Source: a virus | Lineage: Duplodnaviria > Heunggongvirae > Uroviricota > Caudoviricetes | Reading direction: 5' to 3' (one strand) | DNA: 15,189 nt | IMG/VR virus record: IMGVR_UViG_2651869755_000008 | Shown here: one piece after another, positions 1 through 15,189 of the stretch | Layout of the letters: every line of letters starts with the position of its first letter | Numbering within the stretch: the stretch's first letter is position 1 | Made by a program: the position numbers and the translations under genes | Notes under the pieces: generated by a model | Database searches by the model: none | Told to the model about the DNA's origin: nothing | Seen by the model: only the letters and a program-made list of their open reading frames with translations

Positions 1-192
1 CGGTGGAAATGGACAACAGATTACAACCGTCGCTCGATAGCGGAAACGGCGATGTACCGGGTAAAACAGCTGTTCGGGGGTTCACTGACGCTGCGTGACT
101 ACGATGGTCAGGTTGCGGAGGCTATGGCCCTGGTACGAGCGCTGAACAAAATGACGAAAGCAGGTATACCTGAAAGCGTGCGTATTGCCTGA
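1..192 (+). CDS. 3' end of an unidentified gene, 63 codons open from the window edge, stop TGA at 190..192
   Basis: Open frame from position 1 (frame 1), ending ...GIPESVRIA*. Codon usage looks enterobacterial. Not in the ORF track because it is partial. Convergent with the integrase. Product not recognised. Confidence 0.4.
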   Translation, partial: RWKWTTDYNRRSIAETAMYRVKQLFGGSLTLRDYDGQVAEAMALVRALNKMTKAGIPESVRIA

Positions 193-233
193 AAACACAA
201 CCCGCTACGGGGGAGACTTACCCGAAATCTGAT

Positions 234-1214
234 TTATTCAACAAAGCCCACCCTGGGCATGAAAACAAAATGCAGTTTTTGCTTTTCGGTTCTGCCGTAC
301 TCCCGATGATAAAAGGTGATTTCGCTTTTGCGATGATGCCCGGTCAGTTTGTATTGCTCCTTCAGTGCTTCAAGAGCAGGCTGCAGTAGTGTTACTGTCC
401 GGATCCCGGCATTTGTTTTTGGGGGACCGAACATATCAAGTATCGTCAGGTTTCTTCTGACATTCACTATTCCCTTTTCGAGATCCACATCCTCCCACGC
501 CAGAGCTGCCAGTTCCCCGTGACGAAGTCCTGAGTAAACTGCAAATTTCCACATGTTCTGGCTCTGTCCTTTTTCACTTTCCATTAATGCATTGAATTCT
601 GTTTTAGATAACGGATCAGGCTTTATTCTGTTTCGCTGTAATTTTTTTACTCCTTCAAATGGTTTGGTTGATATAAATCCCGACTGATACGCAAAACGTA
701 ACAGCGAACAGAGCAGGGCGATATAGTTATCAACTGTGCGCACGGTTCTTCCTTTTTTGTTGGATCTTGGATTATCCAGGTAAAGCGTTTCTCCATGCAG
801 CAGTTCATTCCGGTAGTTTAAGATATCGCTATAACGAATATGTGATATCAGGGTACTTTCACAAATTATTATTCTGAGTGTTTTTAATTGTGATTTCGTT
901 TTCTTCATTGTGTTTGTTGTTAACTCTGTCTCTTTAATTTTTGTCCAGATATCACAAAGCTCTCCGAACGTTTTTATGACTCTCGTTGTCACCATTTTTG
1001 CCCCAGTGCTGGACTGGGGAAAACGTCTTAAATACTCAAATTCACCGGAGTTTATTTCATGAACTATCAGCGCTCTTAAATTTCCGGCCTTTTTAATATT
1101 ACTGTTTGTAATCTCCCAGCCTTTTAATGTTTCCCGACATCGTTTTCCTCGAAACATGAACCAGATGCGAATGTATCTACCTCTAATCTCGACACCTGTT
1201 GGTAATTTAGACAT
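234..1214 (-). CDS. intR: Phage tyrosine integrase (Rac IntR-like), apparently C-terminally truncated at 326 aa
   Basis: ORF-track protein has an integrase N-terminal arm-binding region and the box I motif VYSGLRHGELAALAWEDVD. The HxxR and catalytic Tyr motifs expected about 60-90 aa further on are absent, and I found them in no minus-strand frame of 1..233. Start ATG at 1214 lies 1 nt after the xis stop. Confidence 0.75.
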   Translation of the reverse strand: MSKLPTGVEIRGRYIRIWFMFRGKRCRETLKGWEITNSNIKKAGNLRALIVHEINSGEFEYLRRFPQSSTGAKMVTTRVIKTFGELCDIWTKIKETELTTNTMKKTKSQLKTLRIIICESTLISHIRYSDILNYRNELLHGETLYLDNPRSNKKGRTVRTVDNYIALLCSLLRFAYQSGFISTKPFEGVKKLQRNRIKPDPLSKTEFNALMESEKGQSQNMWKFAVYSGLRHGELAALAWEDVDLEKGIVNVRRNLTILDMFGPPKTNAGIRTVTLLQPALEALKEQYKLTGHHRKSEITFYHREYGRTEKQKLHFVFMPRVGFVE

Positions 1215-1215
1215 A

Positions 1216-1431
1216 TCATGAGTCTTTGATAAACTGATTTATCTTTGGATAGTTGTACCAGATAATCCCTCGTTTGCTGTCTGGCTTACCTAAAGGAGAT
1301 ACTCGTTTGAAGTGGAAGCCCTCCACCCAACAGTTCTGGCGGTATGCTTCAATTTGTCTGGCCCCCAGACCAGTGCGAAGCATCAGGCCGTATTCAACCA
1401 TCCACTCTTCATTAAAGATTACTTGTGCCAT
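1216..1431 (-). CDS. xisR: Excisionase-like small protein (YdaQ/XisR-like), 71 aa
   Basis: Internal ATG at 1431 preceded by GAGGTGA; the ORF-track N-terminus begins with TTG at 1455 and has no SD. Product [15 protein letters not shown]... is 71 aa, matching my recollection of Rac YdaQ. Sits immediately upstream of int in the same orientation. Confidence 0.75.
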
Positions 1432-1530
1432 CGCATCACCTCTGGCAGGCGCCAATGTTAGACTGAAATTGACGCCCGATGTTGATTATTAATAATCAGC
1501 TATGAAGTTTTAATTTGAATACAATGCAAT

Positions 1531-1719
1531 TCACGAGGACTGAAGTTTCTCGCAATTAAAATTTATCAGTTTTACTTTCTGCTCTCTGGAAACGCCTGCT
1601 TCTTTTTTACCTGAGAGCATTTTTTCGCATTCTGATTTCGTTAGTTTAGATTTTGAATATCTTGTCCAGTTAGTAGGAGTGCCACCTTCCTTTTCAATAG
1701 TGGCGGTAATTTTATACAT
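1531..1719 (-). CDS. ydaC: Small prophage protein, YdaC-like (start uncertain)
   Basis: ATG at 1719 preceded by GGAGGTG 5 nt upstream; overlaps the ralR stop by 8 nt. The longer 86-aa ORF-track version would overlap ralR by 80 nt. Position between xis and ralR matches Rac order. Confidence 0.55.
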   Translation of the reverse strand: MYKITATIEKEGGTPTNWTRYSKSKLTKSECEKMLSGKKEAGVSREQKVKLINFNCEKLQSS

Positions 1720-1906
1720 GAACACCTCCGTTATTATTTCCAGTGGTTCGTTTATTCCATCTTTCGAGTGCTTCTTTTTCACTTCCACCATAACCGGTTC
1801 GGGATTCGCATCCGTTACACTTCGCTCGGTAATATCCTGAAATGACTTTCACCGTTACTGATGGACAACCACAAAATGGACATGGTTTAACATTGTCATA
1901 TCTCAT
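1712..1906 (-). CDS. ralR: RalR (Lar) restriction-alleviation protein; toxin of the RalR/RalA type I toxin-antitoxin pair
   Basis: Product MRYDNVKPCPFCGCPSVTVKVISGYYRAKCNGCESRTGYGGSEKEALERWNKRTTGNNNGGVHV (64 aa) with a CxxC...CxxC motif, recognised as Rac RalR. The ORF track extends 13 codons upstream (start 1945); the internal start is chosen to fit the known length. Confidence 0.85.
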   Translation of the reverse strand: MRYDNVKPCPFCGCPSVTVKVISGYYRAKCNGCESRTGYGGSEKEALERWNKRTTGNNNGGVHV

Positions 1907-1962
1907 AATTTTTCTCATAAAAAATATTTCAAGTTGGCGGTGCATTACACCGCCAGGCTGAA

Positions 1963-2772
1963 TTATTCCTCTGAATTATCGATTACACTGTATTCCCCGG
2001 TTAATACAGAGGAATCTGCAGGATCGATTGTCAGTGGTTCCTTTTCATCCATTGATACTGCACGCTGGATCTCAATTGATACGGGCAGATATTTGAACAG
2101 GCGACGAATAGCCGTTTTCTTTGCCATTTCTTCCCAGTGAGTTACCCACGGCCCGTTATTACCAGCTTTACTCAGGCTGCGCACCAGCTCAATCTGTTTG
2201 CGCGTCATAACTTCAAACTGAGTACCTCCGTCTTTCAGTCTTGCGACAGCATAGACGTGGGTAACCGGGGCATCTTCGTTTTCTCCCGGGCGGTGTATTA
2301 ACTTTTCATCAAGGCCAAATTCGAAGCTAAACTCGTCACCTTCACGGACAACACGGGCTGACAGGCTGGCGATTTGACCAGAACGGCGAGCCAGATCAAT
2401 CATGCCGCGATAGCCAATGATTAGCTGAACGTTCTTTTTACCGCTCTTTTCGTTTTTATTACCAAAAGGCAGTAAATATGCATGACCGAGGGCGCTACCT
2501 GGCTCAAGTCCGAGCTGTGAACACTGTACGATCGCACTGACAAAACTCATAGTGTCACAGTTTCCTAACGCCGGAACTTTACGAATTTCTGTGGTGGCGA
2601 TACGGATCATACGTTCAGCCGTCATATGGCGTGGAAGAGCTGCTGCCAGTTGCTCTTTCATTGATGGCTGGTTAATAAAACTAATCACGTCGCTATTTTT
2701 AACTGCTGCTGGTGCACGGTTTCCCTGAGTTTTTTGCAGATCGGCTTTTGCGATTGGTGGTTGCTTAGTCAT
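1963..2772 (-). CDS. recT: RecT single-strand annealing recombinase, 269 aa
   Basis: Product from [21 protein letters not shown]... recognised as RecT. ATG at 2772 preceded by AAGGAA; overlaps the recE stop by 8 nt, the classic recET arrangement. Confidence 0.95.
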
Positions 2773-5365
2773 TTGCATATTCCTTAGCCCAGCGGGGCAG
2801 TGATAATGTCTTAATAGCTGGCCATTCATCGGTATTCAGGCAGTCAGACAGGGTTCGCAGATTGCGGTGATATTCCTGTTGACCTGCCAGTTTTGCTTCT
2901 TCGCCCATCATGAAAATTTCAACCGGATAACGTCCGCATTCAATAGTTGTGCTGGCAACCAGAAAAACGAAAGTTGGCTGCACTCCAAACTGTGCTTCAT
3001 AACCGTCACTGTAGAATGCATCCTGAACGTGATAGCGGTAGTCGTAATAAGCGGTTTTGAATCGTTGAATATCCGCCGTAGTTTTCACGTCCATGATCCA
3101 GTGAAATTCAGGGATAATTTTGTCCGGACGGCACCGACACAAAATTCCTGTTTCAGGATCTTCCCAGTAAATTGATGATTCAGCGTGTCCGGCGCTTTCA
3201 ACAAGCCATTGCCCCAGCGGCAAAGCCATAACGCTTTGATACATGAGTTCAATTTTCCGGCCTTCTTCCGCAGTGATAACCGTTTTTCCTGTGCTTGCGC
3301 ATTCCATCAGAAACGCTTTCTCTTCTTCTTTTCCGGCGTTTGTACGGCGGTTAAATTCAGGTGCTACGATAAAGCGGTTACTGAATTCTTCCGGTTCAAG
3401 TACCCGGCAGTGGAAAGCGGTTCCTAAATCGAGCGTTTTTGTCTTTGTGGTGTCCACGGGGGCATTTTTACGCCACAAATATAGTGCCGGAGTATCAGCA
3501 ATGTCATCGAGCTGAGACTTACTGACACCGGGACCCGCGTGGTAATTCTCATTCGAAATTCCGTAATAAATACCTGGCTCTATGTCTTCTACGATTACGG
3601 GATCTGCGACTTCGCCAGTTTCATCACTGCAATCGCGATGCGGATCGCTGCCAGCATTCTCATTGTGCGGATGTTCAGCGCCTTCCATTTCCTCCGGATC
3701 ATTTTCCTTAGCTTCAACCTGACTCTCTTCATCGAATGTTTCCTGGTATGTTGCGTCGCCCATCACCGCACCACAGTCAGGGCAGTTATCCCCGCCAGTC
3801 TGGCCGCAGGCATTGCAGGCTATTTCCGGTTCCTGTTGCACTACTGGCTCAGGTTGATTCATATCCGGGCTGGTTTTTTCCGTTTCTGGCTGGTTCTGGT
3901 ACACACAATCGCGAGTCTGGATCCCCTTTACCCATTTCGGATCGTTCGGGTCGCTAATTCCGTCAACAAATTCACCACGTGATGCAGCAAGCAATTTATC
4001 GGCATCGACAGGATTTTTTGATGGAATGTTTTTCCGGGCTTCATGGAGTTCTGCCCGCAGTTCCTGATATTTCGCATCAACAGAATTTACCTGTGACTGA
4101 GCATCCAGCGGCTGCGTGTCCTGATGATGTTCAGTTGCGTCCGGTTCCATTGTTTCAGCCTCTCCCTGTTCAACTGCCGTTGTTCCAGATGGTTGCGGTT
4201 TTTCTTCATCATCCTGTTTTCCTTCTTCTGTTACTCGCTGCGGCATCGGGGCAGAGGAGCGACCGCAGGCAATATCCACGATTTCCGGATCAGGGTTGGC
4301 ATGATCGGTTTCAGTCAGTACTTTGTTCAGATATTCAGTGACGTGCGCGGGGATGACCTCGATCCCAATTGGTGCTTCTTTTACGGACGCAACCACGATG
4401 GCGCGGGAATAATCCAGCCCGCCAGGCATGGTGATGAATTTGTCGCGGAAAACAGAAAAGGGCGGTTTATTTTCAGCGATAATTTCCTCAATGCGTTTAG
4501 CGTGTGCCGGATGAAGGTTATAGATGTCCAGATCCATTGAACGGGCCAGTACGCCAGTGGCTACGTCGCGCGCCAGTGACGTCAGATCGTGTACGAAACC
4601 TTCGCCGCGATCGGTGAGGTTTCCGCCGCCAGCATTAGCACCGGAAGCCGTGCGAGTGATGTGTGAAACACGATTACCCTTCATCCACTCTTTTGTCAGC
4701 AGTCCTCGATCGGTGTAGTCAGCGTTCAGGTATGCTTCGAAAAAAGCAGTTATCAGTCCCAGGTTTGAATTACCAGGATTAGGGAAAACTTTGTCAGTGT
4801 CACGAACCAGTTTGTGGAGTTCGCGAATTTCCAGCGGGTCGAGCAGGCTGGTTTTGTGGGAAACAGCCAGAGCAGTAACAGCCGGTAGTTCTTCAGCCCG
4901 AGCAATGTGTAATGCCTGGAGTCCGTCGCGTGAAACGTGCGTTACCGGTTTTTCGCTGCCGTGTTGAGCAAGCCAACGAATGGGCAGTTCCTGGCCAGAA
5001 ATTGGGAGTAGCATATTCTCCTCAATCTCAGTCATGTCTTCGCCGTTGACGTTGGTATTGCCTTGATAGTGAGCGTTGTCTGGTGCTGCTCCCGGTTTTA
5101 GTTCCCATGTCATGGAGTCTTTGCTGAGTTGATAGCGTTCACTCCAGGTAAAATCGATCTCACCTTCAGCGGGCAGGTCATTAACGACAGGAAAATTCGT
5201 GGCAACAGCTTTAAAATAGCTGCTCAGTTTTTTACCTGACTTAACGATCAGGTAGTCCAGAGTGGCACAGGTCGATTCAAAATCGTTGCTTGCCCACAGG
5301 ACGACGTCAGGTTCACCGGATGATTTTTTCGCTTTCCGTAACAGGAAGAGTGGTTTTGTGCTCAT
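2765..5365 (-). CDS. recE: RecE exonuclease VIII, 866 aa
   Basis: The 866-aa ORF with a long acidic low-complexity middle region and a C-terminal nuclease domain is recognised as Rac RecE; the length matches my recollection. Immediately upstream of and overlapping recT. Confidence 0.95.
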
Positions 5366-5466
5366 TGTTTTTTAACCTCAACTCAGATTAAAATTCGTTT
5401 TGTTCAGTGAATGATCTTGCCGGATACACACTGTTCATAGCCTGCGCCATACGCAGGCTATTTCTT

Positions 5467-5742
5467 TCAGATTTCACCTTTTAATTTCATTGCAATTAGA
5501 GTTGCCAGAAATTCGGCTTTTTTTTCTGCGGGCAGATTTTTTCCGATATGCACCAGGCACATTTTTTTGACACCTTCATCAAGTGTTTTTACGTTGCCTG
5601 ATGGACCATCGATATCAACCACAGTGAATGGGGTTTCTTTATTTTCTGTTTTAATTACGTAGCCAATGCGCTTTCCTTCCAGATTCACCTCGTGAACAAT
5701 GTCATCGGTAGTTACAACAGTGGCTTCATAATTGGTAATCAT
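5467..5742 (-). CDS. racC: RacC, 91 aa, function unknown
   Basis: Internal ATG at 5742 preceded by AAGGAG; product MITNYEATVVTTDDIVHEV... recognised as RacC. The ORF track adds 16 upstream codons with no SD. Confidence 0.8.
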   Translation of the reverse strand: MITNYEATVVTTDDIVHEVNLEGKRIGYVIKTENKETPFTVVDIDGPSGNVKTLDEGVKKMCLVHIGKNLPAEKKAEFLATLIAMKLKGEI

Positions 5743-5816
5743 GTTTTTCTCCTTAATTAAGGTTGAGCGAATACCTGCCATTTCTGGCATAAATTCAGTT
5801 TCGAATAGTCAATTAA

Positions 5817-5987
5817 TTAAAGTTCATGTGCCATCTGGTCTTTTTCGGCACAAGCTTCACTGCAATATTTTCTCGGTTCGTCTTTTGATAAAATCCCGTG
5901 CATGAAGTGAAGCATTCTTTCAATAGCTTTGCTTTCTTCAACGTCTTTTTTGCAAAGGTGGTAAGCACATTTTATTTTCTTAGTCAT
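5817..5987 (-). CDS. ydaE: YdaE small Cys-rich (zinc-binding type) protein, 56 aa
   Basis: Hand-translated minus-strand [59 protein letters not shown], below the ORF-track length cutoff. Its ATG overlaps the kilR TGA stop (TGATG), suggesting translational coupling. Confidence 0.75.
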   Translation of the reverse strand: MTKKIKCAYHLCKKDVEESKAIERMLHFMHGILSKDEPRKYCSEACAEKDQMAHEL

Positions 5988-6208
5988 CACCATGACTCCG
6001 CCTTTACAGGTAAACCATCACGACCGAGGAAGACTTTAATCATGCGGTCAGTAATGAATGTTTTTGTGGTCAGGTTACGAATATATAGTTTTCGCTTTTT
6101 AATATTGTTTGCCGAGGCAATATATGTCCGGCCTTCATGAAGAACATAATCGCCAGGAGTCACACACTGACGTGGTATTTCATCAGTTCCGAAGTGATGT
6201 GCAATCAT
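5987..6208 (-). CDS. kilR: KilR, FtsZ-targeting cell division inhibitor, 73 aa
   Basis: Product [38 protein letters not shown]... recognised as Rac KilR. ATG at 6208 has GGAGAT 5 nt upstream; the ORF-track ATG at 6220 has no SD. Confidence 0.85.
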
Positions 6209-6389
6209 AATTATCTCCATTTTTACAAATGAACTTTGTTGATGCGGTGTCTGGTGCCTCCAGGTGACTGCAACCAGTTAACAATTACAGTCGGCTTTCC
6301 CACCCAAACCAATAAGGACTAACATGACTTTTAACTGTGCCACGTGCGCTTAGCCGCATTCACCGCATCACAAAATTCACTTTAAAAAG

Positions 6390-6431
6390 GGCGGACATCA
6401 GCCGAACTTCAAGAAAAAAACTGATGCCGCC
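6390..6431 (-). terminator. Intrinsic-terminator-like hairpin on the minus strand, upstream of kilR
   Basis: Minus-strand RNA would read GGCGGCAUCAG - 19-nt loop - CUGAUGUCCGCC followed by CUUUUUAAA: an 11-bp stem with one bulge, then a U5 tract. The plus-strand version has no U tract. The loop is longer than in typical terminators. Confidence 0.4.
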
Positions 6432-6649
6432 AGGACTACACACAGCAATGTCGTTATTTACAACCGGAGGCGCACTCCCACCATTTAAATTTAACAGACA
6501 AGACCGACTCTTTATGGATATCGGAAATGCGCCTTCGTGTTGTGCCCGGTTTTATTTCACCACCTCCGGGCTTCGGTGGTCTCGGCTATACCCCTACAGC
6601 GAGAGCTTGTGTTAACATTTCAATACCCTTACAGTTGAGAGTTATTGAT

Positions 6650-7138
6650 ATGTTGGATGTATTTACTCCATTGTTGAAACTTTTTGCTAACGAGCCACTC
6701 GAAAGACTTATGTATACGATTATCATTTTTGGTCTCACTCTCTGGCTGATACCGAAAGAGTTTACTGTCGCATTCAATGCTTATACTGAAATACCTTGGC
6801 TCTTTCAGATTATCGTTTTTGCCTTTTCTTTCGTGGTCGCCATTTCCTTCTCAAGATTGCGAGCACATATTCAAAAGCATTATTCATTACTACCAGAGCA
6901 ACGAGTATTGCTTCGTTTATCTGAGAAAGAAATCGCTGTATTTAAAGATTTCCTTAAAACAGGAAATCTTATTATCACTTCTCCTTGCCGTAACCCGGTT
7001 ATGAAAAAATTAGAACGGAAGGGCATCATTCAACATCAGAGTGATAGCGCAAACTGTTCTTATTATCTCGTCACCGAAAAATACTCCCATTTTATGAAAT
7101 TATTCTGGAACAGCAGGAGTAGACGTTTTAATCGTTAG
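6650..7138 (+). CDS. sieB: SieB superinfection exclusion protein, 162 aa, membrane
   Basis: Internal ATG at 6650; product MLDVFTPLLKLFANEPLERLMYTIIIFGLTLWLIPKEF... has two hydrophobic segments and is recognised as Rac SieB. The 203-aa ORF-track version begins at an upstream start inside the untranslated region. Confidence 0.85.
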   Translation: MLDVFTPLLKLFANEPLERLMYTIIIFGLTLWLIPKEFTVAFNAYTEIPWLFQIIVFAFSFVVAISFSRLRAHIQKHYSLLPEQRVLLRLSEKEIAVFKDFLKTGNLIITSPCRNPVMKKLERKGIIQHQSDSANCSYYLVTEKYSHFMKLFWNSRSRRFNR

Positions 7139-7290
7139 CTTACTGTGTGCTTCTCCAACCATCGGCGCGCACCAGTTTCGGTTTTAAATGTTTTGCTTTT
7201 GGTATACGTCATGGCAGTGAACGTTCCATCCTGGTTGGGGAACACGCCGCACACCAGGGATTCGTTGTTGCCGAGGTCGATTTTTTGCAT
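7135..7290 (-). CDS. ydaF: YdaF small protein, 51 aa
   Basis: Hand-translated MQKIDLGNNESLVCGVFPNQDGTFTAMTYTKSKTFKTETGARRWLEKHTVS*. Length and position (between sieB and racR, minus strand) match Rac ydaF. Its 3' end overlaps the sieB stop by 4 nt, convergently. Confidence 0.7.
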   Translation of the reverse strand: MQKIDLGNNESLVCGVFPNQDGTFTAMTYTKSKTFKTETGARRWLEKHTVS

Positions 7291-7313
7291 TTTGCGAATC
7301 TCACATCTTGTTG

Positions 7314-7436
7314 CTACGTATAGCGACTTCTGCCTGCCAGAGATCCTAGTCGTTGCTGCGTAAAGCCTGCACAGCCTGGTTGTAAGTGATACCGCAACAA
7401 TCCATCAAATACTGAACTACTTCGTAATGCACCATC
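7314..7436 (-). CDS. ydaG: YdaG-like small protein, 40 aa
   Basis: Hand-translated MVALRSSSVFDGLLRYHLQPGCAGFTQQRLGSLAGRSRYT* with a strong SD (AAGGGGAG) 5-6 nt upstream. Position matches Rac ydaG, but the length (40 versus a recalled 44 aa) and identity are not verified. Confidence 0.45.
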   Translation of the reverse strand, partial: DGALRSSSVFDGLLRYHLQPGCAGFTQQRLGSLAGRSRYT

Positions 7437-7603
7437 TTATCTCTCCCCTTAACGCCGGGTGGCGGAACTAACTGCTGCACTGCAAAATTTGAATCCCGCC
7501 GTCATGTTCATACGCCTCGGGCTGGCTACTTAACCCCTGACCACTGCCTGGTAACTCGAAGTATTGCCCGGCGTTCTGTGGGGCGGGGTGGGTTGGTAGG
7601 TAT

Positions 7604-7648
7604 ATAATGTACTTTATGTTCATCATTGTAAAGTACTTTAAGTACATT
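7604..7648 (-). promoter_or_regulatory. Candidate leftward promoter flanked by ATGTACTT-type palindromic motifs
   Basis: On the minus strand, TTTACA (plus 7627..7632), a 17-nt spacer, then CATTAT (plus 7604..7609). The site is overlapped by ATGTACTT (7607..7614), the palindrome AAGTACTT (7633..7640) and AAGTACAT (7641..7648). Called by eye only. Confidence 0.3.
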
Positions 7649-7722
7649 TTATGTATAAAAAAATGAGACGGGATAAAGTGAAGCACAAACCCGGAGGGGG
7701 ACGCTACCGGATTTATGCTGGT

Positions 7723-8142
7723 TTAAGAGGCTTTTTGTTTTTTCTTTCGTGCTAACTCTTCGTAAATTGCATTGTACTTCTGTTTTTTCTCCTCAAGAGT
7801 TTTTAAAAGTTCATCTGTCTCACTGTCAGGGAGCTCGTCCAGAAGGTCAATGATGATTTTTTGTCTTGGATTTAACTCCTGATAGAAACGTATCTGTCCA
7901 CTTTCTTCTGTATCCTCTCCCAAAAGATAGGTTGGTGTTGTTCCAATGAGTGTTGCTAATTCCCTTAATTTCTCTCGGCGAGGAATTGTTTCACCATTAA
8001 ACCATTTGCTAACCGCTTTTGGTGTTAATTTCATTCGACGGGCAATTTCTGCCTGCCTTCCATGTTGTTCATAACCAGCGTTTTCACAGGCTAGCGCAAG
8101 CCTACTGGCGAACTCTTTACGCGCTTTATCTTCATGAACCAT
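7723..8142 (-). CDS. racR: RacR-like prophage repressor with an XRE-family HTH, 139 aa
   Basis: N-terminal HTH-like segment (QAEIARRMKLTPKAVSKWFNGETIPRREKLRELATLIG), no LexA-like peptidase domain, divergent from ydaS-ydaT as in Rac. No in-frame ATG upstream before a stop. Confidence 0.8.
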   Translation of the reverse strand: MVHEDKARKEFASRLALACENAGYEQHGRQAEIARRMKLTPKAVSKWFNGETIPRREKLRELATLIGTTPTYLLGEDTEESGQIRFYQELNPRQKIIIDLLDELPDSETDELLKTLEEKKQKYNAIYEELARKKKQKAS

Positions 8143-8221
8143 AAGTTCAATGATATTCGCTCTTGAATGTACTGTCAGTTCTGTTATAGCATGTACTCAA
8201 AGTTCACATTGTGAGGATGAT
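8143..8221. promoter_or_regulatory. Divergent racR / ydaS promoter-operator region
   Basis: 79-bp intergenic region with repeated motifs: AAGTTCA at 8143..8149 and 8200..8206, ATGTACT at 8167..8173 and 8191..8197. The placement mirrors a lambda OR-type switch region. Confidence 0.55.
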
Positions 8222-8476
8222 ATGAACCAGAAAACACTTGAAGATGTAATCAAAACTGTTCGCGTTTCTGTTGTGGCCGACGTTTGTGGTGTCAGCCAAA
8301 GAGCAATCTACAAATGGATGGATAACGGAAAATTGCCTCGCACAGAATATACCGGCGAAACAAATTACGCTGAAAAAATCGCTCATGCATCAAACGGATT
8401 ATTTTCTGCCGATGCAATTTTAACTATTGGCAGAAATAAAACTACTACGAAAAAGCTGATGGGAGTTGATTCATGA
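8222..8476 (+). CDS. ydaS: YdaS-like Cro/HTH protein, 84 aa
   Basis: ATG at 8222 with GAGG 6 nt upstream; HTH-like VADVCGVSQRAIYKWMDNGKLP. Its stop overlaps the ydaT start (ATGA). The ORF-track N-terminal 24 codons have no SD. Confidence 0.75.
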   Translation: MNQKTLEDVIKTVRVSVVADVCGVSQRAIYKWMDNGKLPRTEYTGETNYAEKIAHASNGLFSADAILTIGRNKTTTKKLMGVDS

Positions 8477-8895
8477 AAATCAAGCATGAGCACATCGAAT
8501 CAGTGTTGTTAGCCCTGGCAGCCGAAAAAGGGCAGGCGTGGGTCGCTAACGCAATTACTGAAGAATATCTGCGCCAGGGGGGCGGCGAATTGCCCCTGGT
8601 ACCAGGCAAGGACTGGAACAATCAGCAGAATATCTATCATCGTTGGTTGAAAGGTGAAACGAATGCGCAAAGGGAAAAAATTCAGAAACTGATCCCTGCG
8701 GTTCTGGCAATTCTTCCTCGCGAGCTGCGTCACCGACTCTGCATCTTCGATACCCTGGAACGCCGTGCATTACTGGCGGCACAGGATGCACTGAGTACGG
8801 CAATTGATGCGCATGATGATGCAGTCCAGGCCGTTTACCGTAAAGCACATTTCAGCGGCGGCGGTTCTCCTGGCGATTCTGTCGTAGTGCATTGA
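8473..8895 (+). CDS. ydaT: YdaT, 140 aa, co-transcribed partner of YdaS
   Basis: The 140-aa product MKIKHEHIESVLLALAAEKGQAWVANAITEEYLRQ... matches my recollection of Rac YdaT in length and position; translationally coupled to ydaS. Confidence 0.8.
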   Translation: MKIKHEHIESVLLALAAEKGQAWVANAITEEYLRQGGGELPLVPGKDWNNQQNIYHRWLKGETNAQREKIQKLIPAVLAILPRELRHRLCIFDTLERRALLAAQDALSTAIDAHDDAVQAVYRKAHFSGGGSPGDSVVVH

Positions 8896-8939
8896 TTGAA
8901 ATTAATCGTACCGAACTGTTTTGTTCGGTATCAGTTAAA

Positions 8940-8960
8940 TGTAACGCTGCGAGCGTTACA
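8940..8960. repeat. Palindromic iteron-like site TGTAACGCT-gcg-AGCGTTACA
   Basis: Perfect 9-bp inverted repeat with a 3-bp spacer, 13 bp upstream of the ydaU start. Confidence 0.6.
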
Positions 8961-8972
8961 AGGTGAAAACAA

Positions 8973-9761
8973 ATGGCTTCAAACTGGATAAAGCTCGAAG
9001 TTATTACGCCGGATAAGCCGGAAATATTCAGGCTTGCTGAGATTCTGAATATTGATCCAGATGCCGCATTAGGGAAAGTCATTCGCTTCTGGGCATGGGC
9101 GGATCAACAAATGATAGACGGTAACGCAGAGTGTAACGCTCGCGGCGTTACAAAAAGTGCAATAGATCGCATCACTTTTATGGCTGGTTTTGCTGATGCG
9201 TTAATTCAGGTTGGATGGCTGGTCGAAACTAATGGTGTGTTGTCGCTTCCTAACTTTGAGCGCCATAACGGGAAAAGCTCTAAAAAACGGGCGGTTACAA
9301 ACGAGAGAGTAACAAAAATACGAGAACTGAAACGAAAAGGTAACGCTGCCAGCGTTACAAAAACGGATCAAAAAGCGTTACCAGAGGAAGAGAAAGAGGA
9401 AGATATAAATACTTATCTCCCCCTAAATCCCCCTCGCCAAAAACGAGCGTCTAAAAAATTCGAACCGGAGGCTATCGAGCTGCCTGACTGGTTGCCGGAA
9501 ACACTCTGGCATGAGTGGGTTCAGTTCAGGCAGGCATTGCGAAAACCGATTCGAACGGAGCAGGGCGCTAACGGGGCGATACGGGAGCTGGAAAAATTCC
9601 GCCAGCAGGGTTTTTCACCTGAGCAGGTGATTCGACACAGCATCGCCAATGAATACCAGGGCTTGTTCGCGCCAAAAGGTGTTCGACCTGAGACGTTACT
9701 CCGACAGGTTAACACCGTCTCGTTACCGGATAGTGCGATCCCGCCAGGCTTCAGGGGGTAA
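8973..9761 (+). CDS. ydaU: YdaU-like replication initiation protein (lambda O analogue), 262 aa
   Basis: Sits directly upstream of the DnaC-like gene in the lambda O/P arrangement; AAGGTGA SD. Contains palindromic repeats inside the coding region. Family assignment is from memory of Rac YdaU. Confidence 0.75.
   Translation: MASNWIKLEVITPDKPEIFRLAEILNIDPDAALGKVIRFWAWADQQMIDGNAECNARGVTKSAIDRITFMAGFADALIQVGWLVETNGVLSLPNFERHNGKSSKKRAVTNERVTKIRELKRKGNAASVTKTDQKALPEEEKEEDINTYLPLNPPRQKRASKKFEPEAIELPDWLPETLWHEWVQFRQALRKPIRTEQGANGAIRELEKFRQQGFSPEQVIRHSIANEYQGLFAPKGVRPETLLRQVNTVSLPDSAIPPGFRG
9132..9152. repeat. Palindromic iteron-like site TGTAACGCT-cgc-GGCGTTACA, inside ydaU
   Basis: Near-perfect copy of the 8940 palindrome; a GGTAACGC half-site lies at 9120..9127. 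Confidence 0.6.
9339..9359. repeat. Palindromic iteron-like site GGTAACGCT-gcc-AGCGTTACA, inside ydaU
   Basis: Third copy. Further half-site-like GTTACA / GTAACA at 9293..9316. Confidence 0.6.
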
Positions 9762-9767
9762 CTGACC

Positions 9768-10514
9768 ATGAAAAATATTGCGGCAGGCGGCATTCTTGAA
9801 CGTATCCGCAGACTGGCCCCGCCACATGTAACCGCCCCATTCAAAACGGTAGCGGAGTGGCGCGAGTGGCAACTTTCCGAAGGCCAGAAACGTTGTGAGG
9901 AGATCAACCGTCAGAATCGTCAGTTGCGGGTGGAAAAAATTCTGAATCGCTCTGGCATCCAGCCATTGCACCGCAAATGCTCGTTTGCGAATTACCGGGT
10001 GCAGAACGACGGTCAGCGATACGCGTTGAACCAGGCGAAATCTATCGCTGATGAACTGATGACCGGGTGTACAAATTTTGCGTTCAGCGGAAAACCTGGT
10101 ACCGGAAAAAACCATCTGGCGGCGGCTATCGGGAATCGCCTGCTGAAAGATGGCCAGACAGTGATTGTGGTTACCGTGGCTGATGTCATGAGTGCTCTAC
10201 ACGCCAGCTATGACGACGGGCAATCAGGCGAAAAATTTTTGCGGGAACTGTGCCAAGTGGATCTGCTGGTTCTTGATGAAATTGGCATTCAGCGCGAGAC
10301 AAAAAACGAGCAGGTGGTGCTGCACCAGATTGTTGATCGCCGGACAGCGTCGATGCGCAGCGTGGGGATGCTGACAAACCTGAACTATGAGGCGATGAAA
10401 ACATTGCTCGGCGAGCGGATTATGGATCGCATGACCATGAACGGCGGACGCTGGGTGAATTTTAACTGGGAGAGCTGGCGTCCGAATGTCGTCCTGCCAG
10501 GAATTGCGAAGTGA
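9768..10514 (+). CDS. ydaV: DnaC-like helicase loader / replication protein (YdaV), 248 aa
   Basis: Walker [12 protein letters not shown] and Walker B LLVLDEIG in an AAA+ DnaC/IstB-like context; directly follows ydaU. Confidence 0.85.
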
Positions 10515-10536
10515 TTTTTACCGGGAGGAAATTTTA

Positions 10537-11298
10537 ATGGAGACTGTTTTTGACGCACTGAAAGCAATGGGAAAAGCCACGTCGGTAGAACTGGCTGCGC
10601 GACTTGATATCAGTCGTGAAGAGGTACTGAACGAGCTGTGGGAACTGAAAAAGGCTGGTTTCGTTGATAAAAGCGTATACATCTGGCGTGTGGCTGATAA
10701 CAACGTTCAGCAGGAACAGCCAGAGCAGGCAGAACTGCCGGAAGAAACCACCACGGCAACAGTCGCAAAAATTTCGGAGTGCGATTTAACTGCGACGATT
10801 GAACAACGTGGCCCACAAACGGCGGATGAACTGGCTACGTTTTTCGGCATCACATCACGCAAAGTGGCTTCAACGCTGGCAATGGCAATCAGTAAAGGTC
10901 GTCTGATTCGCGTTAATCAGAACGGTAAATTTCGTTACTGCATGCCGGGCGATAATTTACCAGCAGAGCCGAAAGCTGCATCGGTAGCGGAAACTGATGG
11001 TAAAGCCTTTCCTCAGCCAGCCGGTGTTGCGTTACCAGCACAGGAAGCGGCAACACAGGAAGAAATTAAAACAGATACTATGGGGGACATTGTGCAGTCA
11101 CTACCATCGTTCACTGAAACGCGAGCCAATGACCTGATTTTACCATCGCTGCATATGGCAAACCGCGAACTGCGCCGGGCGAAAAGTCATGTCCAGAAGT
11201 GGGAGCGAGTCTGCGCCGCGCTGCGTGAGTTGAACAAGCACAGGGATATTGTACGACAGATTACTGATTCTTCCCGCCATGTTGCATCGGAAAAGTGA
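10537..11298 (+). CDS. Prophage protein with two winged-helix-like repeats (DUF977/YdaW-like), 253 aa
   Basis: ATG at 10537 with GGGAGG 8 nt upstream. Two similar HTH-like segments ([28 protein letters not shown] and [32 protein letters not shown]). Family name is a recollection, not verified. Confidence 0.55.
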
Positions 11299-11313
11299 TT
11301 GCCGGAGGCACCT

Positions 11314-11643
11314 ATGGCAAAAGTATTTACACCAGAAGAGCGGGAAAAAATTAAAGGGCAGGTTGTTGAACTTGTACGTCTGAGCGGTCGCGAGACGTTA
11401 CGGGCTCTGGAGGCTAAAACCGGTGCATCAAGGTATTACATAAGCACTCTTGCCAGAGAACTGGTCGCCAGTGGTGATGTTTACAATTCTGGCTACGGAT
11501 TATTCCCGTTTGAGCAGGCGCGTAAAGACTGGCAAAACGCCCGCAAAAAACTATCAAGGGCAAAGATGAAGAAACCGGTTGTGGTAGATCCAAACCTAAT
11601 CTGGTCATTACCTGATGGAGAAATCCGTCGCCTTAGTCTTTGA
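11314..11643 (+). CDS. Hypothetical small prophage protein, 109 aa
   Basis: ATG at 11314 with GGAGG 5 nt upstream; normal GC and codon usage; last gene before the AT-rich island. No recognisable family. Confidence 0.5.
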   Translation: MAKVFTPEEREKIKGQVVELVRLSGRETLRALEAKTGASRYYISTLARELVASGDVYNSGYGLFPFEQARKDWQNARKKLSRAKMKKPVVVDPNLIWSLPDGEIRRLSL

Positions 11644-11678
11644 TACTATGTTTATAATGTTGAAAAAGAGTCTAATAG

Positions 11679-11708
11679 TTGACATTGTATGAAATATGAT
11701 TGTTATAT
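11679..11708 (+). promoter_or_regulatory. Candidate sigma-70 promoter for the island gene
   Basis: TTGACA at 11679..11684, 18-bp spacer, TTATAT at 11703..11708, about 40 bp upstream of the 11745 start. By eye only. Confidence 0.3.
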
Positions 11709-11744
11709 AAAATGATTTTTTTGGAGACTGTTTAAGGTAAACAA

Positions 11745-12548
11745 ATGAAACCAGAATACTTAAGGAAAATAGAATCATTGCAACGTGAGGTTGATGATTT
11801 CCATCCAGTGCTAAGAGCGCTTCTACCACGTTTGCCGACTGTTACACATGTTGAATATAAGCAAGGACCATCAGAAAAAGGTGCTGATTTTGTCATAATT
11901 AAACGAGATGAGGCATTAGATGAGGAAATATATATTGGGGTTATTTGTAAGGTTGGAAAGATAATTCAGTCAAATAGTGAGGTCGAACGACAAATAGAAG
12001 AGTGTCAATTATACCCACGCTTTATTTCTTCTGGCTCTAAGAACATACATTTGAATGAAATTTGGGTTGTTACTAATTCATCAATCTCAAATAATGCTCA
12101 AGAAAAAATCTACTTAAAATTCAAATCTACAAATATAAAGTTTATAGAAGGTGAGAAAATATGTTCTTTAATCAGTAAATATTACCCAGAGTTTTGGGAT
12201 TTCGAATCCATTAATTATGAGCAATACTTAACAGATACATTGCAAACCATAAGTGATACTCCTGAAAGTTCTTTTTTTGGTAGTGTTGGCATAAATAACC
12301 TTATTGATAGATATGTAAGCAAGGAAGATCATAAAAAACGCAGGCACAGGCCGTTAAAACTGTATAGTGTTGTGAGAGCCGAGAGATTTATTTTTTTAGA
12401 GGGAACTGTTGGCTCCGGGAAAAGTACTTTGCTGAAACAGCTAATTAAAAAAATAAAAGAAGAATATTCTTACGAAAAAGACTACATCCTTCCAGTATTT
12501 TGCCAATACAAGGATGTTCTAGAAAAAAACTCAATATTGAAAATATAA
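11745..12548 (+). CDS. N-terminal part of a frameshifted Mrr-like nuclease / NACHT NTPase gene (Mrr-like domain plus Walker A)
   Basis: AAGGT SD. N-terminal ~150 aa resemble the Mrr-cat restriction-endonuclease fold (VLRALLPRL...KGADFVII...SEVERQIEEC...NEIWVVTNSSISNNAQEKIY...NIKFIEGEKICSLI). Walker A GTVGSGKST lies near the C-terminus. The frame ends 6 codons after an A7 run. Confidence 0.75.
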   Translation: MKPEYLRKIESLQREVDDFHPVLRALLPRLPTVTHVEYKQGPSEKGADFVIIKRDEALDEEIYIGVICKVGKIIQSNSEVERQIEECQLYPRFISSGSKNIHLNEIWVVTNSSISNNAQEKIYLKFKSTNIKFIEGEKICSLISKYYPEFWDFESINYEQYLTDTLQTISDTPESSFFGSVGINNLIDRYVSKEDHKKRRHRPLKLYSVVRAERFIFLEGTVGSGKSTLLKQLIKKIKEEYSYEKDYILPVFCQYKDVLEKNSILKI

Positions 12549-14002
12549 TACAAAGTGTATTAAGTAAGTACAAAATACAACATGATGGGAATATTTTATT
12601 AATTGTTGATTCGGTGGATGAAGTAAAGGAATCACTTGAGGAAAGGCAAAACAACTTCAGGGACATTGTAGAGAAAGTATCCAGGAGTGATAAAGTTCGA
12701 TTACTAGTTGCTTCAAGAATTATGGACTCTCTTCAGGACTATGAAGTTATCGATCAGATGTTTGCAAGATACTCGATAATACCACTTAGCACAGGTCAAA
12801 TAATCGACTTTGTAGATAAAATCTGCAATGACATTAAAATAACAAACAAGCTTAAGAATGGTATAGAAAAAACACCACTATTTAAATTCATTCCCAGGAC
12901 TCCAGTGAGTGCTATTCTTCTAGCAAGAATACTCTCTGATGAGATTAAAGAATTACCATCTACAATGACAGAACTATACTCAAAATACAGTGAGATAGTA
13001 TTGGGACGATGGGATACATCTAAGGGATTATTATCGCAAACAGAATATGATGTAATAAGTAATATATTAGTAGAAATTGCGATGTTTATGATGGATAACT
13101 CTCTAAACTGCATATCAATTTCTGAAGTGCAGGACATGTTTTTAAATTATTTGGCCAAAAGAAACTTGAATGTTGATGAGGACAAACTTTTCAAAAGACT
13201 AATTTATCGCAGTGAAGTAACAACAGTTAATGTTAGAACTAATACGTTCTCATTTCTACACAGATCATTCATGGAGTATTTTTACGCTGAAGGACTTAGG
13301 AAGCGTGGCTTAATAGACATAAATGATAATATTTATGATATTTATTGGGCAAATAGTTATTTCTTCTATTTTGGTTTATTAAGAGACAATGAATATCTTA
13401 TTGATAAAATTAATGAACTTAAACCTAGTAACGATAAAACAAGATTTTTAAGGTTATTTTATAACGGTTCTTTTTATTTGGCTTCATATCTAACTCCGTA
13501 TAAAAAAATAGCAAGGGGAGTCCTTTTATCATATATAGATGCAGGTAAATTATATGTTGATATTCTCCATGGAAATACCGACATCCCGCTGAAGGAGTTT
13601 TCACCAGTAGCTCTTCTTTGTATTTTTACAAAGTGTTTAAGTAACAATTACGCATATGATTTTTTCAAATCTGCCTTGGAAGACTTGTCAGTTCAAATTG
13701 AACAATATGAGGAAATTGGGGAACATATTGATTATGCACGTTTCTTCATAGCATCAACACTGAATGAGCTCGGGGATAAATCCGCATTTGATAGCTTAGT
13801 GGAAAAAAATAAATTAGGTGTTTTGATTAATTTAGGGATAACTCACGTTACAGACGACTCAGGGCTACTAAGTACTACGGTTGATAAGTACCTGAAAAAA
13901 TTCAATAAAAAAGTACGAAGTAACCATGATATGTCTAATTATATATCTAAGTTATATGAGGAATCTACTGGTTCCTTACGTACAAACCTACAAATTCAAT
14001 AA
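12500..14002 (+). CDS. C-terminal part of the same gene (NACHT Walker B to C-terminal helical domain); frame differs from 11745..12548
   Basis: NACHT-type Walker B LLIVDSVDE, sensor-1-like RLLVASR, TPLF / PRTPVSAILLARIL, and FSFLHRSFMEYFYAEG matching the conserved NACHT motif seen in NLRs. The only start before these motifs is the TTG at 12500 with no SD, so independent translation is unlikely. Confidence 0.75.
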   Translation: MPIQGCSRKKLNIENIIQSVLSKYKIQHDGNILLIVDSVDEVKESLEERQNNFRDIVEKVSRSDKVRLLVASRIMDSLQDYEVIDQMFARYSIIPLSTGQIIDFVDKICNDIKITNKLKNGIEKTPLFKFIPRTPVSAILLARILSDEIKELPSTMTELYSKYSEIVLGRWDTSKGLLSQTEYDVISNILVEIAMFMMDNSLNCISISEVQDMFLNYLAKRNLNVDEDKLFKRLIYRSEVTTVNVRTNTFSFLHRSFMEYFYAEGLRKRGLIDINDNIYDIYWANSYFFYFGLLRDNEYLIDKINELKPSNDKTRFLRLFYNGSFYLASYLTPYKKIARGVLLSYIDAGKLYVDILHGNTDIPLKEFSPVALLCIFTKCLSNNYAYDFFKSALEDLSVQIEQYEEIGEHIDYARFFIASTLNELGDKSAFDSLVEKNKLGVLINLGITHVTDDSGLLSTTVDKYLKKFNKKVRSNHDMSNYISKLYEESTGSLRTNLQIQ

Positions 14003-14013
14003 TAAATAGATTG

Positions 14014-14048
14014 TCACATTGAAGGTAACGTATCGACCTTCAATGTGA
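14014..14048 (+). terminator. Rho-independent terminator-like hairpin after the NACHT gene
   Basis: Perfect 13-bp inverted repeat TCACATTGAAGGT / ACCTTCAATGTGA with a 9-nt loop, followed by TTATTATCCTCTT; 12 bp after the stop. Confidence 0.5.
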
Positions 14049-14941
14049 TTATTATCCTCTTAATAATATAGCCTAGGCTACTTTCGACTTTCTGAGGCAC
14101 AGAGATTGCAGAATGTATCAATCATAGTGAAGCTATCGTAAATGTCCGCACGTTTCTACAGATAGTCAGATTTGAGTGAACTGCCTCCGCAAAATGCTGG
14201 TTGGGGCCTGACTTAATACATCTGAAGAAGTGTTGGTTATGTTTGGCTGTTATGAATCAGATAATTGATATGTTGATTAGAGGAGAAGATAGAATCAACA
14301 TGGTTGTTTTTCGTATAACTATTTGTTTTACTTTTAGTTTATGCATTCTGTGTGTTAGGAGTAAGTTATTAAAGTTTAACCAAAAAATCTTGATGTCGTC
14401 CACATAGATTACTGTTACTGAACCTTATTGTGTGCATTAGTTGTGTTTTGAAATTTCAATTTAATTATTTATGATGTGTATTTTTAACGATAAATGTTTT
14501 CTGGGTAAAAGACAGTGGGGGATGAGATAGGCAATATATCATTAATCTTGATTATCTCCAGGATGCCTTTACTGTTCATATAAATAAATCACATGCGCAT
14601 CAAGTAATGTAAAGGCATCCTTTTAGTTATATCTTATTAAATGTTAATGCTTTGAGTGGAAAACATGATTCCAGCAATTATCATATGGCTACTTTATAAA
14701 AATAATGCCCATATAAAACAACAAGTGAAAAGGATTACGGATAAAAAAGGAGCGAGATGTGCAAAGTTGTTATTTTCCATGTTTAACCACCTTAAACAAT
14801 TGATGATGACGGGATGATTGCATCTGCAATGCTTTTATTGAAATGTTATGATAAAAAAGAACTTTTTCATAACATTAAAATGCAATTTATCTAATCGTTT
14901 TTAATAATAAGTGTGGTATTTCTATCCTTGTACCAGCTATT

Positions 14942-15189
14942 TAGACTGGCCCCCTGAATCACCAGACAACCAATATCACTTATTTAAGTGATAGTCTTAA
15001 TACTAGTTTTTAGGCTAGTCATTGGAGAGCAGATGATTGATGTCTTAGGACCGGAGAAACGCAGACGGCGTACCACACAGGAAAAGATCGCAATTGTTCA
15101 GCAGAGCTTTGAACCAGGGATGACGGTCTCCCTCGTTGCCCGGCAACATGGTGTAGCAGCCAGCCAGTTATTTCTCTGGCGTAAGCAAT
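14942..15189 (+). mobile_element. Left end of an IS2-like insertion sequence (IS3 family), continuing past the window edge
   Basis: TAGACTGGCCCCCTGAATC...CCAGACAACCAATATCACTTA matches my memory of the IS2 left terminal inverted repeat, followed about 90 bp later by the insC start. Confidence 0.8.
15033..15189 (+). CDS. insC: IS2 OrfA (InsC) transposase N-terminal HTH part, partial (52 codons to window edge)
   Basis: Hand-translated [52 protein letters not shown], recognised as the IS2 InsC N-terminus. Confidence 0.8.

Follow-up and report, generated by a model that had tools for sequence, protein, structure and literature searches.

What ends the integrase gene at the left margin of this Rac-type prophage? 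The window analysed here is the whole of contig LJYC01000055.1 (assembly GCA_001306715.1, 15189 bp) of E. coli JA37. This strain was isolated from the blood culture of a patient with urosepsis, and its genome was assembled with A5 from MiSeq 2x250 reads into 193 contigs (PMC4722275). An earlier note on this DNA, made from its letters without database searches, had drawn attention to a 326-aa integrase frame that appeared to lack its catalytic C-terminus, and had suggested that the prophage was excision-defective or that its left end had been rearranged or deleted. Two questions follow. Is the frame a short integrase in its own right or the remnant of a longer one, and, if it is a remnant, what interrupted the gene and what would the interruption mean for the mobility of the prophage? 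Our answer, to which we assign a probability of roughly 90%, is that IS903B transposed into intR of the Rac-type cryptic prophage of JA37, and that excision should be abolished unless an integrase is supplied in trans. The coordinates of the features discussed below are collected in Table 1.

An intR reading frame that runs into IS903B

The minus-strand frame is as the earlier note had it, an ORF from 234 to 1214 whose product ends in ...HFVFMPRVGFVE*, and the length of about 411 residues that it gave for Rac IntR was also accurate: intact IntR is 411 aa long in K-12 and close relatives, and intR spans 1236 nt and is followed by ttcA. Over residues 1-322 the product aligns with the intact protein WP_000040851.1 at 322/322 positions, and with K-12 IntR at 320/322 positions and no gaps. 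Both its sequence and its gene neighbourhood, with xisR adjoining and the Rac early genes beyond, mark the remnant as an ortholog of K-12 IntR. Its tail had been described as unlike that of an integrase, which turns out to be wrong, as residues 293-322 (HHRKSEITFYHREYGRTEKQKLHFVFMPRV) are the same as in intact IntR. The only foreign part of the product is GFVE and the stop codon, which derive from the terminal repeat of IS903B, GGCTTTGTTGAATAA, as read on its minus strand. In frame with intR, this strand of the repeat gives GGC TTT GTT GAA TAA, or Gly-Phe-Val-Glu-stop.

Positions 1-248 of the window are identical (100%) to annotated IS903B ends in more than 4900 plasmid records. They match the IS903B copy of NZ_CP074756 at 245/248 positions, and the similarity to that copy stops exactly past base 248. 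A megablast of window positions 1-1500 against 5426 complete E. coli genomes approaches the same point from the other side, with similarity to intact intR-xisR loci starting exactly at 249. The true junction is at 248|249, exactly at the final base of the IS terminal repeat, and this repeat (GGCTTTGTTGAATAAATC) recurs in identical form at either end of the IS903B copy (1057 bp) in NZ_CP074756. A convergent plus-strand ORF ending at 192 had been remarked on; its stop is indeed there, and the ORF is the 3' end, 63 codons long, of the IS903B transposase gene. The encoded fragment matches the IS5 family transposase model NF033579 (NCBIfam) over profile positions 239-289 of 289 (E=2.6e-15), and Pfam DDE_Tnp_1 (PF01609) over profile positions 155-199 of 200. 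The statement that no minus-strand frame of 1..233 contains HxxR does not survive, since one frame has both HAFR and HSLR; these motifs lie antisense to the transposase and are unrelated to any integrase.

The right end of the contig has much the same form as the left. From about position 14940 on, the window matches IS2/IS3-family transposase regions in many places across thousands of genomes, and each end of the contig lies about 248 bp, or about one read length, inside an IS copy. Contigs that halt roughly one read length into a multi-copy repeat are typical of short-read assembly. Both ends are assembly breaks, and the left end is no prophage boundary. That the left side is unlike the K-12 arrangement, as the earlier note had observed, is true; the change falls at 248|249 rather than at 193 or 233, and it arises because of the IS plus the contig end, a cause that had been missed. 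ttcA and attL go unseen at the left because assembly broke down at the multi-copy IS. We derived the 26-bp K-12 Rac att core, TTGTTCAGGTTGTATTGTTCTTTCTT, from the annotated prophage ends; this core and its flanks have only chance matches in the window, and IS903B holds the position where it would stand. The IS2-like insertion at the right separates the NACHT and DUF1367 genes of the prophage and is also present in LC-1302-2020.

Table 1. Positions of the IS, intR and xisR features in the window, and of the IS903B copy in intR of a second strain
Feature	Position	Strand	Remark
IS903B, right-hand 248 bp (IS5 family, IS903 group)	1..248	+	100% identical to plasmid copies
IS903B transposase 3' end, last 63 codons and stop	1..192	+	open from base 1
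IS903B 18-bp terminal inverted repeat, GGCTTTGTTGAATAAATC	231..248	-	supplies GFVE and TAA to the intR frame
Truncated intR ORF, 326 codons	234..1214	-	249-1214 are native IntR residues 1-322; 234-248 are IS-derived
CACCCTGGG, codons P320-R321-V322 of intR	249..257	.	putative 9-bp target; twin expected at the other IS end
xisR (ydaQ) excisionase gene, intact, 71 aa	1216..1431	-	Pfam DUF1233 putative excisionase, E=8.9e-21
IS2-like (IS3 family) element, left end	14942..15189	+	contig stops inside the element
IS903B copy in intR of F2_407_2_2 (NZ_CP074756)	L002 3583-4639	.	intR annotated by PGAP as two pseudogene halves

Catalytic residues and the prospects for excision

The arm-type DNA-binding domain of the remnant is complete, with Pfam Arm-DNA-bind_2 (PF12167) matching residues 5-69 over its whole profile (E=2.5e-26). 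The catalytic domain is cut short. Pfam Phage_integrase (PF00589) is covered over profile positions 6-110 of 172 in the remnant versus 6-165 of 172 in intact IntR, where the match extends to residue 391 (profile position 165), and this bears out the suspicion that the catalytic C-terminus is missing. The absent part comprises the 89 residues 323-411 (CNGKQKPYYSVSSLGARWNAAVKRAGIRRRNPYHTRHTFACWLLTAGANPAFIASQMGHETAQMVYEIYGMWIDDMNDEQIAMLNARLS). Catalytic residues were mapped by aligning intact IntR to the solved Tn1549 Int (6emy, 6en0). In this alignment Arg231 (in SGLRHGEL) and Lys266 (in PPKTNAGIR) are kept in the remnant, while the Y355-H356-T357-R358 box, of the (Y/H)xxR type, His381 and the tyrosine region Y388/Y391 are gone with residues 323-411. 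The complete catalytic set consists of Arg-I, Lys-beta, (H/Y)xxR, His/Trp and the nucleophile Tyr, and only R231 and K266 represent it here. One residue differs between the Tn1549 Int chains (F in 6emy, Y in 6en0) and is presumably the nucleophile of that enzyme; it aligns opposite I390, beside Y391. With a register uncertainty of one residue, the nucleophile of IntR is most likely Y391, and possibly Y388.

A tyrosine recombinase without its second Arg, its His and its Tyr nucleophile cannot carry out strand cleavage. The product of the remnant, which has lost the (Y/H)xxR box together with the second His and the nucleophile Tyr, should be catalytically dead. Since its catalytic set is incomplete, the 326-aa ORF belongs among the pseudogenes of the family and not among its functional members, and we read it as an IS-disrupted intR pseudogene rather than an unusual integrase.

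The excision system of Rac has been described in K-12. There attL lies within the 5' end of ttcA, adjoining intR; the att region is bound by the excisionase, YdaQ (XisR); excision can be induced through overproduced excisionase and integrase; and the prophage is still excision-proficient (PMC4632033). The xisR gene of JA37 is identical (100%) at the DNA level to the annotated xisR of WP_000079604.1 in two other loci (L001 and L004). Judging from the missing catalytic residues, self-excision of the JA37 prophage is probably abolished. To call the prophage excision-defective, as the earlier note had, was reasonable, given that the HxxR-type box is lost along with the second His and nucleophile Tyr; the IS903B insertion that caused the loss had escaped it.

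It is conceivable that the remnant, if expressed, acts as a catalytically dead binder of att sites that blocks related integrases in trans or alters ttcA expression, in which case the Rac genes would be locked into a bloodstream isolate as a selected trait and not through neutral decay. This idea is prompted by the intact arm-binding and core-binding domains and by the translational coupling to xisR, which is kept. We consider it very unlikely.

Insertion, rearrangement or assembly error

In the mechanism that we favor, the 1057-bp IS903B would have entered intR of JA37 at the boundary of codons 322 and 323, oriented so that its transposase gene and intR converge. The terminal repeat would then add Gly-Phe-Val-Glu and TAA to the intR frame, and the resulting 326-aa product would retain the arm- and core-binding domains together with the first half of the catalytic one, and be without residues 323-411. 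Excision that depends on IntR and XisR would be abolished, barring a related integrase in trans. We modelled a simple insertion in silico. It would duplicate the 9 bp CACCCTGGG and leave a residual 90-aa ORF that starts from the GTG of V322; the left junction would read TTACACACCCTGGG|GGCTTTGTTGAATAAATC, with GTTACACACCCTGGG running straight into GGCTTTGTTGAATAAATCGAAC, and the last 270 nt of intR, the 26-bp att core and ttcA would lie leftward of it. A target duplication of this length is seen for IS903B in NZ_CP074756, where the 9-bp GATATCGCT flanks the copy on both sides. We assume such a simple insertion, in which 9 bp are duplicated and the 3' piece of intR is kept, as the default expectation.

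IS903B might instead have mediated a deletion, inversion or other rearrangement, such that the intR 3' end, attL and ttcA are no longer found beyond the IS. The halt of the contig within the IS leaves room for such an event, and other strains have breakpoints in the same part of intR, among them an MFS-IntR fusion (P0001) whose breakpoint is 2-3 bp away. Simple insertion is nevertheless the usual result of IS903 transposition, and in the intR of another strain IS903B has inserted cleanly, duplicating 9 bp and leaving both halves of the gene in place. The expected 90-aa C-terminal ORF also bears on the matter, as it occurs on no contig attributed to the JA37 assembly: a protein-collection search, an exact look-up and the contigs of 24 of 92 index blocks yielded no JA37 partner contig carrying it. 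This look-up is a weak argument for rearrangement, as those 24 blocks are the ones that were read and the gene may have gone uncalled. On balance we regard a rearrangement as unlikely.

The 90-aa ORF is recorded in all 92 of these index blocks, and the contigs that were read start 0-2 nt before the GTG and come from other samples; one contig of the set carries a Nextera adapter. The set reflects a selection of contigs that happen to end at that codon, and it does not speak for an insertion hot spot at V322.

The join between intR and IS903B could also be an assembly artefact, a chimeric contig end in a genome whose intR is intact. The assembly is a short-read draft, and the IS sequence attached to intR amounts to only 248 bp, about one read length. 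A chimera is unlikely because the join coincides to the base with the end of the IS inverted repeat, as in real transposition, whereas a random mis-join would miss that point. The opposite contig end is of the same kind, and there the IS2-like insertion is confirmed in a closed genome. An artefact is, to our minds, scarcely credible. Finally, the naturally short integrase family with catalytic residues present that the earlier note had allowed for can be dismissed, as alignment finds residues 1-322 identical to 411-aa IntR proteins, the catalytic set is down to its first Arg and its Lys, and the last 15 nt of the ORF are IS903B sequence.

Age of the insertion, other intR disruptions and known systems

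We return to transposition of IS903B into intR as the preferred reading, and to the question of when it took place. Over positions 249-15189, the window differs from LC-1302-2020, whose intR is intact, by one substitution and one 1-bp deletion. Because LC-1302-2020 has the IS2-like insertion together with an intact intR, the IS2-like insertion predates the split between JA37 and LC-1302-2020, and IS903B arrived later. The IS903B|intR junction is absent from 5426 complete E. coli genomes (searched with a 120-bp junction query) and has no match in the GTDB species representative genomes (exact-pattern scan), and an exact look-up in the protein collection finds the 326-aa product recorded on one contig only. 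As far as these sequence comparisons reach, the IS903B event looks recent and strain-specific.

Both differences between the two strains can be placed. The substitution, the only one in 14.9 kb of prophage DNA, is at position 5539 in the region of racC, which has recE and ydaE on either side; it is T in the window and C in LC-1302-2020. The gene for a NACHT-domain NTPase, a single 752-aa CDS in LC-1302-2020, is here split into plus-strand ORFs of 267 aa (11745-12548) and 500 aa (12500-14002) by the 1-bp deletion, which falls in the A-run at 12523-12530, which is A7 here and A8 in LC-1302-2020. This deletion could be a real frameshift, a phase-variable tract, or an Illumina or assembly error.

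Other disruptions of intR are plentiful. In the protein collection, C-terminal fragments of IntR from E. coli and Shigella form a cluster of 384 distinct sequences. On the P0067 contigs, intR is present as separate ORFs with no transposase called between them. In the near-complete genome GCA_900450175.1 (L018, 4031-5273), intR is called as overlapping ORFs of 325 aa and 90 aa with no transposase gene between, which suggests a frameshift near the same codon. A different kind of event is seen in GCA_964206315.1 (L005, 6001-6444) and in two Logan runs, where IntR residues 324-411 are fused to part of an MFS transporter in a 147-aa ORF. At these fusion loci the intR breakpoint is 2-3 bp from the JA37 insertion point, the Rac early region has been replaced, and there is no IS at the junction; the proximity of the two breakpoints may be a coincidence or may reflect a local breakpoint hot spot. 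This fusion, P0001, was also considered as the other side of the JA37 IS903B and was rejected, as the samples that contain it are different ones, the breakpoint is 2-3 bp off and there is no IS. Decay of intR is common, and the kind of event that we describe in JA37 is already known.

The significance of the JA37 insertion beyond annotation is small: the label of the ORF should read IS-disrupted intR pseudogene. JA37 would be a natural intR-null, whose Rac genes, recET, kilR and ralR among them, probably stay locked in the chromosome, and whose ttcA could not return to its ancestral form. Repeated insertion of IS903B and the hundreds of IntR fragments fit the familiar loss of mobility genes from cryptic prophages.

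Set beside known systems, the prophage is closest to Rac of K-12, whose right-side gene order it shares (xisR, DUF1187/rcbA, ralR, recT, recE, racC, ydaE, kilR, sieB). It departs from K-12 at IntR (b1345), where the remnant lacks residues 323-411 and gains four IS-encoded residues, and where, in this contig, IS903B follows in place of attL and ttcA. The interrupting element is IS903B, common on Enterobacteriaceae plasmids, with 100% identity over the terminal 248 bp, including the inverted repeat and the transposase 3' end; the full element is 1057 bp long, whereas the window contains only its last 248 bp, without the left repeat. The nearest counterpart to the event itself is found in strain F2_407_2_2 (NZ_CP074756), where IS903B lies in the same prophage integrase gene, with its transposase in the same orientation relative to intR. 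That insertion differs in being an independent event near codon 131, with the duplication GATATCGCT, and in a closed genome in which both halves of intR and ttcA are visible. Judged by the sequences of the two loci, IS903B has disrupted intR independently in at least two strains.
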